Program-made: the position numbers and the translations under genes
Origin: Oscillospiraceae bacterium
GTDB taxonomy: Bacteria > Bacillota > Clostridia > Oscillospirales > CAG-272
NCBI GenBank assembly: GCA_015065385.1
Contig: SVQK01000056.1
Location: 363,264-427,263 of the forward strand
Direction: 5' to 3'
Length of the DNA stretch: 64,000 nt
In this document: positions 1,359 to 29,083 of the stretch, in pieces
How the letters are laid out: the number at the start of each line of letters is the position of its first letter
How positions within the stretch are numbered: position 1 is the stretch's first letter
Notes under the pieces: generated by a model
The model's input: the letters and a program-made list of their open reading frames with translations, nothing else
What the model was told of the DNA's origin: nothing
Databases searched by the model: none

Positions 1359-3758
1359 ATGAAATACGATTTTGCCGCCATTGAGAAGAAATGGCAGGAC
1401 CGGTGGGACGAAGCCGGGATCTTCCGGGCTTCCGACGACCGTTCGAAGAAGAAGTTTTACGCGCTGGTCGAATTCCCCTATCCGAGCGGCGCGGGGATGC
1501 ACGTCGGCCACATCAAGGCCTATTCCGGACTTGAGGTCATCTCCCGGAAGAGAAGGATGGAAGGGTACAACGTGCTCTTCCCGATCGGCTTCGACGCGTT
1601 CGGCCTTCCGACGGAAAACTACGCCGTGAAGACCAACACCCATCCCCGGATCGTCACGGACCGCAACATCAAAAAGTTCACGTCCCAGCTGCGCCGGGTT
1701 GGCTTCTCCTTCGACTGGTCCCGGGTGGTGGACACTACGGACGAGGACTACTATAAGTGGACCCAGTGGATCTTCCGCAAGATGTTTGACGCGGGGCTGG
1801 TTTTCCGCGCCACGACGCTTGTGAACTACTGCCCGCACTGCCAGGTCGTCCTGTCCAACGAGGATTCCCAGGGCGGCAAATGCGATATCTGCCACAGCGA
1901 AGTGATCCAGAAATCGAAGGACGTCTGGTATCTGCGCATCACCGAATACGCCGACAAGCTGCTCGAAGGCCTCTCCAAGGTGGACTATCCCGCCAACGTG
2001 AAGGCCATGCAGGAGAACTGGATCGGCCGGTCCGAGGGCGCGTTCGCCAATTTCAAGCTGACGGGCTGCGACGACTCCCTCCGCATCTACACCACCCGTC
2101 CGGACACCATGTTCGGCGTGACCTTCATGGTCATCGCTCCGGAGCATCCCGTGATCGAGAAATACCGCGACAGGATCAAAAACATCGCAGAGCTTGACGC
2201 TTACCGCGAGGAATGCGCCAAGAAGACGGAGTTCGAGCGGACGCAGCTCGTGAAGGACAAAACGGGCGTCCGGATCGAGGGGATCGCGGCGGTCAATCCG
2301 GCGAACGGAAAGGAGATCCCGATCTATATCTCCGACTACGTTATGATGGGCTACGGCACGGGCGCGATCATGGCCGTTCCCGCGCACGACGAGCGCGACT
2401 ACGACTTTGCGAAGAAATTCGGCATCGATATCATCGAGGTCATCAAGGGCGGCGATATTTCGAAGGAAGCCTATACCGGCGACGGCGAGATGGTCAACTC
2501 CGCCTTCCTCGACGGGATCAAAACCAAGAAGGAAGCCATTGCGAAGATGCTCGGCTACCTGACGGAAAAGGGCATCGGCGAAAAGGGCGTTCAGTACAAG
2601 ATGAAGGACTGGGCGTTCAACCGCCAGCGGTACTGGGGCGAGCCGATCCCGATCGTCCACTGCCCGAAGTGCGGCATGGTCGGCGTACCCTACGAAGAGC
2701 TGCCGCTGAAGCTGCCGCCGGTGGAGAACTTCGAACCCGGAGAGGGCGGCGAGAGTCCTCTGGCAAAGATCGATTCCTTCGTGAACTGCTCCTGCCCGAA
2801 GTGCGGCGGCCCCGCCAGACGCGAGACCGACACCATGCCTCAGTGGGCGGGCTCCTCGTGGTACTTCCTCCGCTACACCGATCCGCACAATCCGGACGCC
2901 ATCGCTTCGAAGGAGGCGCTCGACTACTGGATGCCCGTGGACTGGTACAACGGCGGTATGGAACACGTCACCCGCCACATGATCTACTCCCGGTTCTGGC
3001 ACCGGTTCCTCTATGATATCGGGGCGGTTCCGTGCGAAGAACCGTACGCCAAGAGAACCGCGCAGGGCCTGATCCTCGGTCCGGACGGCGACAAGATGTC
3101 GAAGTCCAAGGGCAACGTGGTGGATCCCAACGACGTGGTGGACGTGTACGGCGCGGACGTTCTCCGGGTGTATGTGCTTTTCATGGGCGACTACGGCTCG
3201 GCGGCACCGTGGAACGACAGCTCCGTGAAGGGCTGCAAGCGGTTCCTCGACCGGGTGGCGTCCCTGCCCGAGATGGTATCCGGCACGGTTCATCCGAAGC
3301 TCGAGACGGCCTTCCACAAGACGGTGAAGAAAGTGACGGGCGACATCGACGAGATGAAATTCAACACCGCCATCGCCGCTCTCATGACCCTGCTCAACGA
3401 TATCACCGACGCGGGCAGCCTGACGAAGGATCAGCTCGTGACGTTCATCAAGCTCCTCAATCCCTTCGCCCCGCACCTGACGGAGGAGATCTGGGAGACC
3501 ATCGGCGGGGCGGGCTTCCTCTCCCTCGCCTCGTGGCCGGAGTATGACGAGGCGAAGACCGTGGACGACGAGATCGAGATCGCCGTGCAGATCATGGGCA
3601 AGCTGAAGGGAACCATCCTCATTCCGAAGGACGCCCCGAAGGAGGAGGCTGTCGCCGCGGCCAAGGCGGATCCGAAGATCGCGCCGTCCCTCGAAGGGAA
3701 GACCGTGGTGAAGGAAATCTACGTTCCCGGCAAGATCGTCAATCTGGTTGTAAAATAA
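1359..3758 (+). CDS. leuS: Leucine--tRNA ligase
   Basis: FPYPSGAGMHVGH (HIGH-like), KMSKS, TTRPDT, YGTGAIMAVPAHDERD editing motif; 799 aa. Confidence 0.98.
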   Translation: MKYDFAAIEKKWQDRWDEAGIFRASDDRSKKKFYALVEFPYPSGAGMHVGHIKAYSGLEVISRKRRMEGYNVLFPIGFDAFGLPTENYAVKTNTHPRIVTDRNIKKFTSQLRRVGFSFDWSRVVDTTDEDYYKWTQWIFRKMFDAGLVFRATTLVNYCPHCQVVLSNEDSQGGKCDICHSEVIQKSKDVWYLRITEYADKLLEGLSKVDYPANVKAMQENWIGRSEGAFANFKLTGCDDSLRIYTTRPDTMFGVTFMVIAPEHPVIEKYRDRIKNIAELDAYREECAKKTEFERTQLVKDKTGVRIEGIAAVNPANGKEIPIYISDYVMMGYGTGAIMAVPAHDERDYDFAKKFGIDIIEVIKGGDISKEAYTGDGEMVNSAFLDGIKTKKEAIAKMLGYLTEKGIGEKGVQYKMKDWAFNRQRYWGEPIPIVHCPKCGMVGVPYEELPLKLPPVENFEPGEGGESPLAKIDSFVNCSCPKCGGPARRETDTMPQWAGSSWYFLRYTDPHNPDAIASKEALDYWMPVDWYNGGMEHVTRHMIYSRFWHRFLYDIGAVPCEEPYAKRTAQGLILGPDGDKMSKSKGNVVDPNDVVDVYGADVLRVYVLFMGDYGSAAPWNDSSVKGCKRFLDRVASLPEMVSGTVHPKLETAFHKTVKKVTGDIDEMKFNTAIAALMTLLNDITDAGSLTKDQLVTFIKLLNPFAPHLTEEIWETIGGAGFLSLASWPEYDEAKTVDDEIEIAVQIMGKLKGTILIPKDAPKEEAVAAAKADPKIAPSLEGKTVVKEIYVPGKIVNLVVK

Positions 3759-25849: not shown

Positions 25850-26926
25850 TCACGCTCCGATCTGCTTCTGGTCGAAGGCGTACAGCGCTTCGTTGATCTC
25901 AAAGACGTTGTAATTGCCCCGCTCGATGAAGTACTTCACGATCACGTCGAAGGGCGCGGATGGCGAGAGGGCATACCCTGCTTTGAGCAAAAGCTCCTCC
26001 GTCTCGGCGAGGGACAGCTCGAGCGCGATGGCGAAGGCGAGGGCCGTCGTCTTGCTTGGCCTGTATTGAGGATCGCTCCGGATCTTCGAGAACAGCTTCC
26101 GGTCCACGTTGGCACGCCGGTAGCACTCCGCGTCCTTCATCCCGCGTTCGTCGATCTTGCGCAGCAGCATTTCCGAAAAGCTCTCGTCGATCATCGAGAG
26201 GGCCTCTTCGAGCGAGACGGAATCCGCGGCTGTGTCCGGGAAAAAGCCCCCGGCGGAGGAAAGCGTCGGAGGGGCCGATTCCTCCTGCCTTTTGCACGCA
26301 TCCGCGCGGGGCGCTCGTTCGGCGAGAAATCCGACGCGGCGGAAGAGCCCTTTCTTCTTCTCCGGCGCGGCAGCGGAGCAGGGGTTTGCCTCGCGCGGGA
26401 ATCCGGTCAGCCCCTCGAGAGTCCGGTTCAGCTCTCCGTACGTCCCGCGCATGGATGCCGGCGGATCGAACAGAACCAGAAGGACGGTCATTTCGTCGTG
26501 TCCGTCCGCGAGAAACGCCCCGATCTCTTCCCCCGCGACCCGGAGCGCGATCGGGCGGGGCATTCCGTATGCTCCCGCGGAAACCAGAGGAAACGCAACG
26601 GACGCGCATCCCGATTCCGCGGCGAGATGGAGGGATCTGCGGTAGCAGGACGCGAGGATCTCCTCCTCACCCCGGCCTCCGCCCTCCCAGACGGGGCCGA
26701 CGGTGTGGATCACGAACCGCGCGGGCAGACCGTAGGCGGCGGTGCGTTTCGCCTCTCCGGGAGCGCATCCCCCGAGCGTTTCGCACTCCTTCCGCAATCC
26801 CGGGCCCGCCGCCCTGTGGATCGCGCCGTCTACGCCCCCGCCTCCGAGCAGGGAAGGATTGGCGGCGTTGACGATCGCGTCGGCTCGGATCTTCGTGATA
26901 TCCCCGTGAATCAGGTAGAAGGGCAT
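25850..26926 (-). CDS. Macrodomain (YmdB/MacroD-type) fused to a C-terminal XRE-like helix-turn-helix domain
   Basis: GDITK, IVNAANPSLLGGGGVDGAIH, IHTVGP, AFPLVSAGAYG; C-terminal CYRRANVDRKLFSKI...ALELSLAETEELLLKAGYAL. Confidence 0.9.
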   Translation of the reverse strand: MPFYLIHGDITKIRADAIVNAANPSLLGGGGVDGAIHRAAGPGLRKECETLGGCAPGEAKRTAAYGLPARFVIHTVGPVWEGGGRGEEEILASCYRRSLHLAAESGCASVAFPLVSAGAYGMPRPIALRVAGEEIGAFLADGHDEMTVLLVLFDPPASMRGTYGELNRTLEGLTGFPREANPCSAAAPEKKKGLFRRVGFLAERAPRADACKRQEESAPPTLSSAGGFFPDTAADSVSLEEALSMIDESFSEMLLRKIDERGMKDAECYRRANVDRKLFSKIRSDPQYRPSKTTALAFAIALELSLAETEELLLKAGYALSPSAPFDVIVKYFIERGNYNVFEINEALYAFDQKQIGA

Positions 26927-26970
26927 GGTCAAAGCTCCTTTCGCGTGCGGCATGGTCATCTTCCGCTCCT

Positions 26971-26999
26971 ATTATAGCAAAAATCCGCGGCTTTCGCAA
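26971..26999 (-). promoter_or_regulatory. sigmaA promoter of the macrodomain gene
   Basis: Minus strand TTGCGA, 17 nt spacer, TGcTATAAT. Confidence 0.65.
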
Positions 27000-27077
27000 G
27001 GGAGTACGGCAAATGGGGGAGAAACGGAGGCGTTGTGAAAAAACTTTCGGAAAAACGAAAAAATGCGCGATTTCCTC

Positions 27078-27106
27078 TTGACAGGCCGGACGGTGAGTGC
27101 TATAAT
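27078..27106 (+). promoter_or_regulatory. Consensus sigmaA promoter of the leader peptide/symporter transcript
   Basis: TTGACA (27078-27083), 17 nt spacer, TGcTATAAT (-10 at 27101-27106). Confidence 0.9.
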
Positions 27107-27134
27107 GTGTAAAAATTCAGCCAAGGGGAAAAAT

Positions 27135-27191
27135 ATGAACTCGTTCGTGTTTGCATACGCCTATTATTACTATTACTTCACTAAAAAGTAA
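27135..27191 (+). CDS. Tyr/Phe-rich attenuation leader peptide MNSFVFAYAYYYYYFTKK (18 aa, not in the ORF track)
   Basis: AAGGGGA RBS 5 nt before ATG; five consecutive Tyr codons (TAT TAT TAC TAT TAC); 6 Tyr and 3 Phe; tandem stops TAA TAG TGA. Confidence 0.85.
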   Translation: MNSFVFAYAYYYYYFTKK

Positions 27192-27236
27192 TAGTGATTT
27201 GTGATGCAAGCAGGAAGTTCGGACAGAATAAACATT

Positions 27237-27274
27237 CAGGCTGCACGGAATCACACCGTTCAGCCTGTTTTTTT
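27237..27274 (+). terminator. Attenuator terminator in the symporter 5' leader
   Basis: CAGGCTG-C-ACGG / CCGT-T-CAGCCTG stem plus T7, lying between the promoter and the symporter ATG. Confidence 0.85.
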
Positions 27275-27329
27275 GAGAAGTCCGGGGTTCCTTCCCATCC
27301 CCCGCGCGGAATAAACATACGGAGGCCAT

Positions 27330-28913
27330 ATGGTTATCAAAATCGCGTTCCTGCTCCTGTTCTTTGCCGTCATGATCGCGGTGGGGTTCGTCTGCCGTCG
27401 TCAGGCGGACAGCGTTCACGGATTCGTTCTGGGCGGACGAAACGTCGGCCCGTGGCTGACTGCCTTCGCCTACGGCACCTCCTATTTCTCCGCCGTCATC
27501 TTCATCGGGTACGCCGGTCAGTTCGGCTGGCGGTTCGGCATTTCGACCACATGGGTCGGCATCGGAAACGCCGTGATCGGATCGCTGCTCGCATGGGTGA
27601 TCCTCGGGCGGAGAACCAGACTGCTCACCCAGAAGCTCGACTCCAAGACCATGCCCGACTATTTCGGTTCCCGGTTCGGGTCCGGCGCGCTCCGGATCGC
27701 GGCCTCCGCCATCGTCTTCATCTTCCTGATTCCCTACACCGCGTCCCTGTACAACGGCCTGTCCCGGCTGTTTGAATCCGCGTTCGGCATCGACTATGTG
27801 TGGTGCGTGCTCATCATGTCCGTCCTGACCGGCGTGTACGTCATCGCGGGCGGCTACATGGCTACGGCGGTGAACGACTTCATTCAGGGCTTAATCATGC
27901 TCATCGGCATCGTGCTCGTCATCGGCGCGGTGCTCAAGGACAACGGCGGATTCATGGAAGCGATGAACTCCCTTTCCGTCCTCGAAGCTCCCTCCAATAC
28001 CGGATTGCACGGCGCGTTCTCGTCCTTCCTCGGTCCGGAACCGCTCACCCTTCTCGGCGTGGTGCTCCTGACCTCCCTCGGCACATGGGGCCTGCCCCAG
28101 ATGGTCGGTAAATTCTACGCCATCAAGAGCGAAAGCGACATCTCGAAGGGCACGCTGATCTCCACGATCTTCGCTATCATTGTGGCGGGCGGCTGTTACT
28201 TCCTCGGCGGGTTTGGACGTCTCTACGGGGATGTGATCGAATACGGCGCGAACGGAAATCCCGTGTATGACAGCATCGTTCCGAAGATGCTCGAAGGCCT
28301 TCCCACCGTCGTTGTGGCGATCGTGATCGTGCTGGTGCTCTCCGCCTCCATGTCCACGCTGTCCTCGCTCGTGCTGACCTCCTCCTCCACCCTGACCCTC
28401 GACATGATCCTGCCGATCCGCTCGAAGGGCGGAAAGAAGACCGAGCAGAAGACCCAGATGCTTCTGATCCGCTGCCTCATCGTGTTCTTCATCGTCGTCT
28501 CCGCGGTGATCGCCATCGTGCAGGTCAAGTCCTCCGTCACCTTCATCGCGCAGCTCATGGGTATTTCCTGGGGCGCTCTGGCCGGCGCGTTCCTCGCTCC
28601 CTTCCTCTACAGCCTCTACGGGAAATGGGTCACGAAGGCCTCCGTGTGGGTCAGCTTTATCTGCGGCGTCGGAATCATGGCCGCGGATATGTTCTGCAAC
28701 TTCACGGGCCGGGTGTTCATCAATTCCTTCTTCGCCTCTCCCATCAACGCGGGCGTTCTGGCGATGGTTGCCGGGCTTGTGCTTGTCCCGGTGGTCAGCC
28801 TCTTCACACCGAAGCCGGACGGGAAGAAGGTGGACGAGATGTTCTCCTGCTACGACCGGACCGTTGTGGTTCACGCCACGACCGCGCTCGGCGAAGAGCA
28901 GAAAGAGAACTGA
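27330..28913 (+). CDS. Sodium:solute symporter (SSS) family transporter
   Basis: FVLGGRNVGPW, TSYFSAVIFIGYAG, TMPDYFGSRF, GGYMATAVNDFIQG, LSASMSTLSS; many TM helices. Confidence 0.93.
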   Translation: MVIKIAFLLLFFAVMIAVGFVCRRQADSVHGFVLGGRNVGPWLTAFAYGTSYFSAVIFIGYAGQFGWRFGISTTWVGIGNAVIGSLLAWVILGRRTRLLTQKLDSKTMPDYFGSRFGSGALRIAASAIVFIFLIPYTASLYNGLSRLFESAFGIDYVWCVLIMSVLTGVYVIAGGYMATAVNDFIQGLIMLIGIVLVIGAVLKDNGGFMEAMNSLSVLEAPSNTGLHGAFSSFLGPEPLTLLGVVLLTSLGTWGLPQMVGKFYAIKSESDISKGTLISTIFAIIVAGGCYFLGGFGRLYGDVIEYGANGNPVYDSIVPKMLEGLPTVVVAIVIVLVLSASMSTLSSLVLTSSSTLTLDMILPIRSKGGKKTEQKTQMLLIRCLIVFFIVVSAVIAIVQVKSSVTFIAQLMGISWGALAGAFLAPFLYSLYGKWVTKASVWVSFICGVGIMAADMFCNFTGRVFINSFFASPINAGVLAMVAGLVLVPVVSLFTPKPDGKKVDEMFSCYDRTVVVHATTALGEEQKEN

Positions 28914-28933
28914 CCGGACAAACCGATATGCGG

Positions 28934-28965
28934 AAAGACGGGATCTTCGGATTCCGTCTTTTTTT
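28934..28965 (+). terminator. Intrinsic terminator with a UUCG tetraloop
   Basis: AAAGACGGGATC-TTCG-GATTCCGTCTTT plus T run. Confidence 0.88.
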
Positions 28966-29015: not shown

Positions 29016-29083
29016 TCCGGAAAGAAGAAAAACGGACGGAGCCGGGCAGACTCCCGGAGGATCGGTCGAAAGGAGGCGTGACG

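Follow-up and report, generated by a model that had tools for sequence, protein, structure and literature searches.

The stretch of DNA analysed here (hereinafter the window) comprises 64,000 nt from an Oscillospiraceae bacterium (CAG-272; contig SVQK01000056.1). On its plus strand it carries an RNA leader followed by a gene encoding a transporter of the sodium:solute symporter (SSS) family. The leader is very probably a ribosome-mediated (leader-peptide) transcription attenuator, with the supply of charged tRNA-Tyr as its signal. Its anatomy, conservation, reading frame, alternative pairings and tyrosine-related regulon were computed, and from the sequence we infer ribosome stalling and kinetics, the tyrosine response and the substrate of the transporter. 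The original prediction for this locus, made from the letters of the window, had proposed attenuation of the trpL/pheL type. This proposal is supported by a conserved upstream open reading frame (ORF) in the Tyr frame, a covarying terminator, mutually exclusive structures, the placement of the stop codon and a tyrosine-related regulon.

The leader consists of a sigma-70/sigmaA-type promoter, a Shine-Dalgarno sequence, a short ORF with a run of Tyr codons, and an intrinsic terminator (Table 1). A sixth Tyr codon precedes the run at 27156-27158. All coordinates originally predicted for the promoter, the ribosome-binding site, the 18-codon ORF and the terminator are right, and so is the distance of 55 nt between the end of the terminator and the ATG of the symporter gene (27330). 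The terminator hairpin has a folding energy of -17.6 kcal/mol (z -2.9); a simple terminator scanner missed it because the scanner accepts loops of only 3-8 nt. For the whole leader the folding energy is -58.3 kcal/mol (z -6.4), a value reached by none of 200 shuffled sequences. Of 25 related leaders, 21 have a promoter in the corresponding position with a score of at least 10/12 (17 are perfect); the remaining four leaders are cut by contig ends.

Table 1 Features of the leader and of the downstream gene, with positions in the window
Feature	Position	Strand	Remarks
Promoter, sigma-70/sigmaA-type	27078..27106	+	TTGACA, 17-nt spacer, TATAAT; TG preceding the -10 element; 12/12 matches
Shine-Dalgarno sequence of the leader ORF, AAGGGGA	27123..27129	+	Read from the sequence
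Leader ORF, 18 codons plus stop, MNSFVFAYAYYYYYFTKK	27135..27191	+	ATG at 27135; stop TAA at 27189-27191
Anti-antiterminator hairpin (1:2)	27148..27212	+	Minimum-energy fold
Run of five Tyr codons (TAT TAT TAC TAT TAC), proposed stall site	27162..27176	+	
Segment 2 core GUGAUUUGUG, 5' strand of the antiterminator	27194..27203	+	Also within the 1:2 hairpin; nearly invariant in 24 protein-found leaders
Intrinsic terminator (3:4)	27237..27274	+	Stem 27237-27267; U-tract of seven T, 27268-27274
Segment 3 core CACGGAAUCAC, 3' strand of the antiterminator	27244..27254	+	Part of the 5' arm and loop of the terminator
SSS family transporter, 527 aa	27330..28913	+	PF00474; predicted tyrosine importer

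Leaders of orthologous genes were gathered by protein search with the transporter, and the set is thus unbiased by RNA. The transporter has a match at E <= 1e-60 in 32 of 36 genomes of the same genus. Consistent with the original expectation that a Tyr-rich upstream ORF would be conserved at orthologous genes, the complete element is present at 24 of the 26 loci (window included) at which transporter identity is at least 74%. The other two loci are L024, which is cut by a contig end and keeps the 3' part of the element, and L012, where the leader is divergent. Four more distant homologs (61-66% identity) have no element, and the exact core pattern occurs in none of 400 other sampled genomes of the order, 25 of which come from 14 further genera of the same family. 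Further copies were collected by pattern. Specifically, a loose scan of genome contigs gave at least 120 stretches, mostly chance matches in AT-rich genomes; nine of the matches listed are genuine, of which three were already in the set and six are further copies. A scan of metagenomes gave 33 genuine copies among 47 stretches. By its conservation, the leader is a real cis-regulatory element and not a chance arrangement.

The divergent leader of L012, a same-genus ortholog, encodes MIINDFVFVHYYRSFGQIQS with two Tyr codons only, and lies about 130-230 nt ahead of the start of the gene, which is at locus position 3060 on the minus strand. An AUGAUUU word, complementary to the loop of its own terminator (AAAUCAU), is located inside the start of this ORF.

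The reading frame through the Tyr run is opened by an ATG in 57 of 58 unique elements and by a GTG in the 58th. In the other two frames, where the run would be translated as Leu or Ile/Thr, an opening ATG is present in 4 and 0 of the 58 elements, respectively. An in-frame ATG preceded at 4-16 nt by a purine tract resembling a Shine-Dalgarno sequence is found in 50 of the 58; in most of the other eight, the tract lies beyond the 72 nt considered. Judged by its start codons, the Tyr frame is the translated frame. The run contains five Tyr codons in 27 elements, six in 13, seven in 14, eight in two and four in two, and Tyr accounts for 361 of the 1057 residues of the 58 leader peptides. TAT makes up 38% of the Tyr codons in the long ORFs of the source genome, a value that says little. 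Outside the Tyr run the peptides differ in length and sequence, with a fairly similar N-terminal half rich in F, A and Y.

The position of the leader stop codon is also conserved. In 54 of the 58 elements it lies between -9 and +2 relative to a conserved word, AAUAGUGAUUU, counted from the A at 27190. Because the stop occurs in all three phases relative to AAUAGUGAUUU, the word is kept as RNA and not as coding sequence. In the window, the conserved word provides three consecutive in-frame stops (TAA TAG TGA, 27189-27197) at the end of the leader ORF, and in other species the leader stops earlier than in the window and in a different phase.

In the minimum-energy fold of the leader, the Tyr codons are paired. 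The main, inner helix of the 1:2 hairpin joins the Tyr codons at 27166-27178 to GUAAUAGUGAU at 27186-27198 by 13 pairs, and the outer helix joins 27148-27160 to 27201-27212. The inner helix pairs in 94.6% of the cells of a 24-species alignment. Across these 24 species, 7 of 14 pairs of the outer helix and 7 of 10 stem pairs of the terminator are changed on both sides. Taken together, the 1:2 hairpin and the terminator pair in 72.6% of cells in the 24 leaders, compared with 30-47% when the partners are slid, and their covariation score of 0.216 exceeds that of shuffles (0.129 +/- 0.009), none of 500 reaching it. Compensated changes occur even within the Tyr run, namely TAC to TAT with G to A (L007, L185, L200), TAC to TCC with U to G (L026, L027, L176, L195) and, in the DAHP synthase group, TAC to TGC with GUAAUAG to GCAAUAG.

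The original prediction had built the 1:2 structure from three other pairings. Its pairing of TGTTTGCAT (27148-56) with ATGCAAGCA (27204-12) is part of the minimum-energy fold and belongs to the outer helix, with its compensatory changes in 7 of 14 pairs. As the main 1:2 pairing it turns out to be secondary, the helix formed by the Tyr codons themselves having been overlooked. The proposed GAACT/AGTTC pairing is present in the fold of the window as the outermost helix, which is not conserved (27% of cells pair in the 24 species), while TCACTA/TAGTGA is confined to a small alternative hairpin that forms on masking of the Tyr run.

Segment 2 can also pair with the 5' arm and loop of the terminator. 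The conserved antiterminator GUGAUUUGUG:CACGGAAUCAC pairs in 94.6% of cells, compared with 24-58% when slid, and the GUGAU of segment 2 belongs to both the 1:2 and the 2:3 helices. In the terminator loop, UCAC (27251-27254) is invariant, and the two bases preceding it vary only to letters compatible with wobble pairing. The terminator stem covaries freely, yet these loop bases are fixed, which would otherwise be unexpected and therefore argues for the antiterminator. The cognate 2:3 duplexes have a mean energy of -13.4 kcal/mol, compared with -6.3 kcal/mol with shuffled segment 2. The antiterminator is thus supported by conservation and complementarity, not by covariation.

Folding with and without a masked ribosome segment bears out the mutually exclusive pairings that had been predicted. 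In transcripts ending before the 3' arm of the terminator, masking of the Tyr run yields 11-17 pairs between segments 2 and 3 in all 25 leaders. The same transcripts fold into the 1:2 hairpin when unmasked, with no 2:3 pairs in 22 of 25. The 2:3 pairing named originally (27205-11 with 27240-45) does form part of the masked fold of the window, but of the two halves of the antiterminator it is the weaker one and is not conserved.

These features are consistent with the following mechanism. The strong promoter would start transcription, and the leader ORF would be translated. When tyrosine is plentiful, the ribosome would pass the five Tyr codons and arrive at the stop (27189), and its footprint would cover GUGAUUUGUG; the usual size of the footprint lets a ribosome at 27189 cover 27194-27203. 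With segment 2 covered, segments 3 and 4 would pair, and the terminator would release the transcript before the transporter gene. In a leader without a ribosome, the Tyr codons would pair with segment 2 (1:2), and the terminator would form again. When charged tRNA-Tyr is scarce, the ribosome would stall in the Tyr run and keep segment 1 single-stranded; the freed segment 2 would then pair with the 5' arm and loop of the terminator before the 3' arm is made, resulting in read-through into the symporter gene.

A number of observations weigh against this mechanism. The antiterminator lacks covariation, because both of its strands are nearly invariant. Exchange of partners between elements gives no separation (own -13.4 kcal/mol, foreign -12.2 kcal/mol), a median of 41% of foreign partners pairing better than the own partner. 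Three leaders (L008, L016 and the 5'-cut L024) already have 2:3 pairs when unmasked. In full-length leaders with the Tyr run masked, the terminator is still present in the minimum-energy fold of every one of the sequences listed; since it wins at equilibrium even then, read-through would need kinetic trapping, as in the classical cases. Four of the 58 leader ORFs extend 27-42 nt beyond segment 2, and masking of segment 2 by a ribosome at the stop would therefore differ there. As for the sample, the 38 copies found by pattern (six from genome contigs, the rest from metagenomes) have both core words by construction, and the related sequences are kin, not independent. In Bacillus subtilis, RNA polymerase is reported to outrun ribosomes in runaway transcription (PMC13323073), which would work against such a switch if it also occurred in the Oscillospirales lineage.

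The genes that follow the element define its likely signal. The element precedes a DAHP synthase gene in two Candidatus Flemingiibacterium metagenome-assembled genomes (MAGs; NF006421, 471 and 481 bits, cut-off 335). In three Acutalibacteraceae MAGs it stands before prephenate dehydrogenase-like genes, for which NF006307 is the best model (173-176 bits, short of the cut-off of 295; E 1e-51). The transporter gene follows 14 of the 33 genuine copies from metagenomes, DAHP synthase follows nine and TyrA two; seven copies are too short to tell, and one (L178) begins like TyrA and then breaks off. Each of six genomes searched contains one copy of the element.

Orthologs of the transporter (E <= 1e-150) are present in 51 of 130 other sampled genomes of the order. 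We scanned with Rfam the upstream DNA of 34 orthologs from outside the genus, in other families of the order. Seven of them are preceded by a T-box, six above the gathering score (L215, L225, L229, L238, L240 and L241) and one, L234, at 69 bits (E 3e-13). The specifier codon of a T-box follows the GAA of the specifier loop. UAC follows this GAA in L215 (from the alignment) and in L225, L229, L238 and L241 (read in the sequence), and it follows GGA in L234. Six of the seven T-boxes thus read UAC, while the seventh, L240, is ambiguous: its GAAUUACC gives UUA when read in register and UAC when read one base further. A T-box with UAC is likewise present in L219, a homolog at greater distance (42% identity). 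Because DAHP synthase and prephenate dehydrogenase genes lie behind the same element and Tyr T-boxes lie before orthologs of the transporter, the signal would be tyrosine. Of the Tyr(/Phe) sensing considered originally, tyrosine is the part upheld by the regulon and the Tyr T-boxes; Phe codons form no conserved run.

The transporter matches PF00474 over its full length (profile positions 1-404 of 406; 185.9 bits, Pfam gathering score 22.8), and on the evidence of its regulation it is probably a tyrosine importer. Assignment as the sodium/proline symporter PutP (TIGR02121) is ruled out by a score of 192.2 bits against an equivalog cut-off of 515.5, and assignment as PanF (TIGR02119) by 136.7 bits against a cut-off of 328.

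The source genome (4.3 Mb, 59.6% G+C, 94% complete) has a single copy of the element; a second copy was looked for in it, and none was found. Its tyrA and DAHP synthase genes lie within an aro cluster, with genes directly upstream of tyrA and no separate leader. Its tyrS (G000:C56:1-1781, L201) begins about 50 nt after the preceding gene, and the intergenic region contains neither a T-box nor a leader. The T-box model (RF00230) has 11 matches elsewhere in this genome. Because tyrA, the DAHP synthase gene and tyrS have no leader of their own and the element occurs once, the switch in the source genome would control the transporter only.

Orthologs in another family carry a second type of Tyr leader. 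In L231 and L250, which belong to different genera, unrelated leaders encoding MKHSHYCYYYICDCLFSLSKR and MNNMFTSYYYYYTVEAVCSHR lie upstream of the gene (at position 1501 in L231 and at about 1501 in L250), each followed by a terminator. The stretch of the ORF right after the Tyr codons pairs with the 5' arm of the terminator, in a two-hairpin layout. Few as they are, these two sequences suggest that Tyr leaders arose more than once before the transporter gene.

Three other explanations of the element have to be weighed. The conserved hairpin, with its UAUUAC repeats and GUAAUAGUGAUUUGUG, could be the binding site of a protein or ligand that responds to tyrosine, by analogy with TRAP, PyrR or a riboswitch. 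The binding would then choose the terminator or the antiterminator, the ORF being incidental or a helper. Protein- or RNA-mediated attenuation is common in Firmicutes, and such binding would account both for an RNA core more invariant than base pairing alone needs and for an antiterminator without covariation. It would not account for a Tyr frame that is opened by ATG in 57 of 58 elements, compared with 4 and 0 for the other frames, and is preceded by a Shine-Dalgarno-like tract in 50. Neither would it explain why the Tyr run ranges in length between 4 and 8 codons while the place of the stop is kept in all three phases, or why a second, unrelated RNA before the orthologs of another family again contains a Tyr run. 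No Rfam family matches the leader. TRAP-type attenuation involves nine to eleven (G/U)AG triplets at a spacing of 2-3 nt, and the window leader has no spaced (G/U)AG repeats of this kind, its repeats being contiguous UAY codons. We therefore regard a protein or ligand as an improbable effector.

The nascent poly-Tyr peptide could itself, in place of tRNA charging, arrest the ribosome in response to free tyrosine or some other small molecule, in the way TnaC responds to tryptophan. Aromatic and hydrophobic peptides can act within the exit tunnel, and the N-terminal halves rich in F, A and Y are fairly similar between elements. The peptides otherwise vary in length and sequence, induction of tyrA and DAHP synthase by free tyrosine would make no regulatory sense, and the orthologs under Tyr T-boxes answer to uncharged tRNA-Tyr, which is the same logic as stalling upon starvation; such a peptide sensor is thus very unlikely. 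We give still less credence to an element that reports on translation speed in general or on tRNA modification (queuosine in tRNA-Tyr) instead of tyrosine supply, or to a small-protein gene linked to a terminator by chance. Many bacteria read UAU and UAC with a tRNA that carries queuosine, and the run mixes TAT and TAC codons. The regulon, however, comprises DAHP synthase, prephenate dehydrogenase and a transporter with Tyr T-boxes before its orthologs, and not queuosine genes, each genome searched has only one copy, and the terminator and the alternative pairings are conserved jointly with the ORF.

Like the trpL, pheL-pheA, hisL, thrL and leuL attenuators of E. coli, the window leader has a short translated ORF with a run of codons for the amino acid that would be sensed, exclusive 1:2, 2:3 and 3:4 segments, an intrinsic terminator before the first gene, and a stop codon at which a terminating ribosome would cover segment 2. 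It differs from them in that tyrosine would be the sensed amino acid, in its host (Oscillospirales, Clostridia) and in its target, which in the source genome is a transporter gene and not a biosynthetic operon. There is no sequence relation to the E. coli attenuators: Rfam gives only sub-threshold matches of chance level on the leader, the best being Thr_leader at 18.2 bits (gathering score 55, E 0.66). With Tyr T-boxes (RF00230) the leader would share its signal, the charging of tRNA-Tyr, and it shares the terminator/antiterminator output and an orthologous target gene. A Tyr T-box, however, binds uncharged tRNA directly and needs no translation, whereas the window leader has no T-box features; RF00230 has no match in 26900-27400 up to E = 10.

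Related leaders have been described in other bacteria. In Corynebacterium glutamicum, the aroR leader (Phe-Tyr-Phe) precedes aroF in a DAHP synthase operon and acts by ribosome stalling; according to a review, it answers to Phe limitation and not to Tyr availability (PMC11802643), and it differs from the window leader in having one Tyr codon, no run, and an actinobacterial host. The uORFC-13-1 motif of Acholeplasma, a relative of Firmicutes, is a candidate upstream ORF with a terminator before aroF (PMC8632094); it has conserved Phe codons (a run of U) and a different RNA, and is a candidate only. In bacilli, His leader peptides upstream of hisZ and of hisS paralogs take the place that a T-box has in relatives (PMC2965389). 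They resemble the window leader as cases of a Firmicutes leader replacing a T-box, and they differ in amino acid (histidine), hosts (Bacilli), sequence and structure.

The original prediction had named no characterised poly-Tyr leader and had called for a literature check. Our check found none in Rfam or in the full text of published papers; the supplementary candidate lists of PMC2965389 and PMC8632094, which lie outside the scope of this search, may contain a Tyr-rich leader. A search of the literature for tyrosine transporters of the SSS family or for transporters under T-boxes found nothing pertinent.

We consider it likely that the element represents the first family of Tyr-specific leader-peptide attenuators, in Clostridia, with at least two unrelated RNA designs before the same transporter. 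Such a family would be evolutionarily interchangeable with Tyr T-boxes, would mark this hitherto unassigned clade of SSS proteins as tyrosine importers, and would imply that ribosomes follow closely behind RNA polymerase in these bacteria. Ribosome-dependent attenuation is regarded as rare in Clostridia. The list of amino acids that leader peptides are known to sense would grow by tyrosine, and the transporter gene would offer a clean natural case in which a T-box and a leader peptide are exchanged before one orthologous gene. Tyrosine would moreover become the predicted substrate of a widespread, unassigned SSS clade in gut and rumen Clostridia, and the element could serve as a simple reporter for transcription-translation coupling in Clostridia.

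Further sequence features were noted upstream of related genes. Three orthologs from one genus (L223, L224 and L226) have a conserved promoter that overlaps an AT-rich inverted repeat (GAATAA...TTATTC); the repeat looks like an operator for a DNA-binding regulator, which would be a third control of the same gene. In a more distant paralog group of SSS homologs (L217, L218 and L220; 42-48% identity), a word, GUAGUAUGG, recurs upstream, twice in L217 with one copy beside the ribosome-binding site, and in L233 GGUAGAAUGGUAGAAUGG stands ahead of a terminator. Neither word has an Rfam match, and both may be unnamed regulatory RNA motifs. The gene context of the orthologs, assessed by eye, varies with the family: in some families the gene directly follows an AMP-dependent ligase-like gene (L227, L232, L235, L239 and L208/L242), and in others it follows a gene whose product has a C-terminus like that of a TrpB-type pyridoxal-phosphate enzyme (L210/L248 and L244-L246).

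Seven RNA-library runs contain part of the locus, and contigs were obtained from three RNA runs and one DNA run, all with 100% identity. One RNA-library contig spans 26700-27743, that is, the promoter, the leader, the terminator and the start of the gene, and reflects either read-through or DNA; being contigs, these data cannot show transcript ends or levels and speak neither for nor against attenuation. Downstream of the gene, contigs of the three RNA runs end at 28932-28935, soon after the transporter stop at 28913, and new, much deeper contigs (29-65) start at 29033-29035. The break between 28932 and 29035 is a weak hint of a transcript boundary followed by a highly represented neighbour.

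Upstream of the leader, a divergent gene on the minus strand (25850-26999) encodes a 369-aa Macro-domain protein with an N-terminal half resembling O-acetyl-ADP-ribose deacetylase. This gene has a promoter-like site of its own at 26999-26971.

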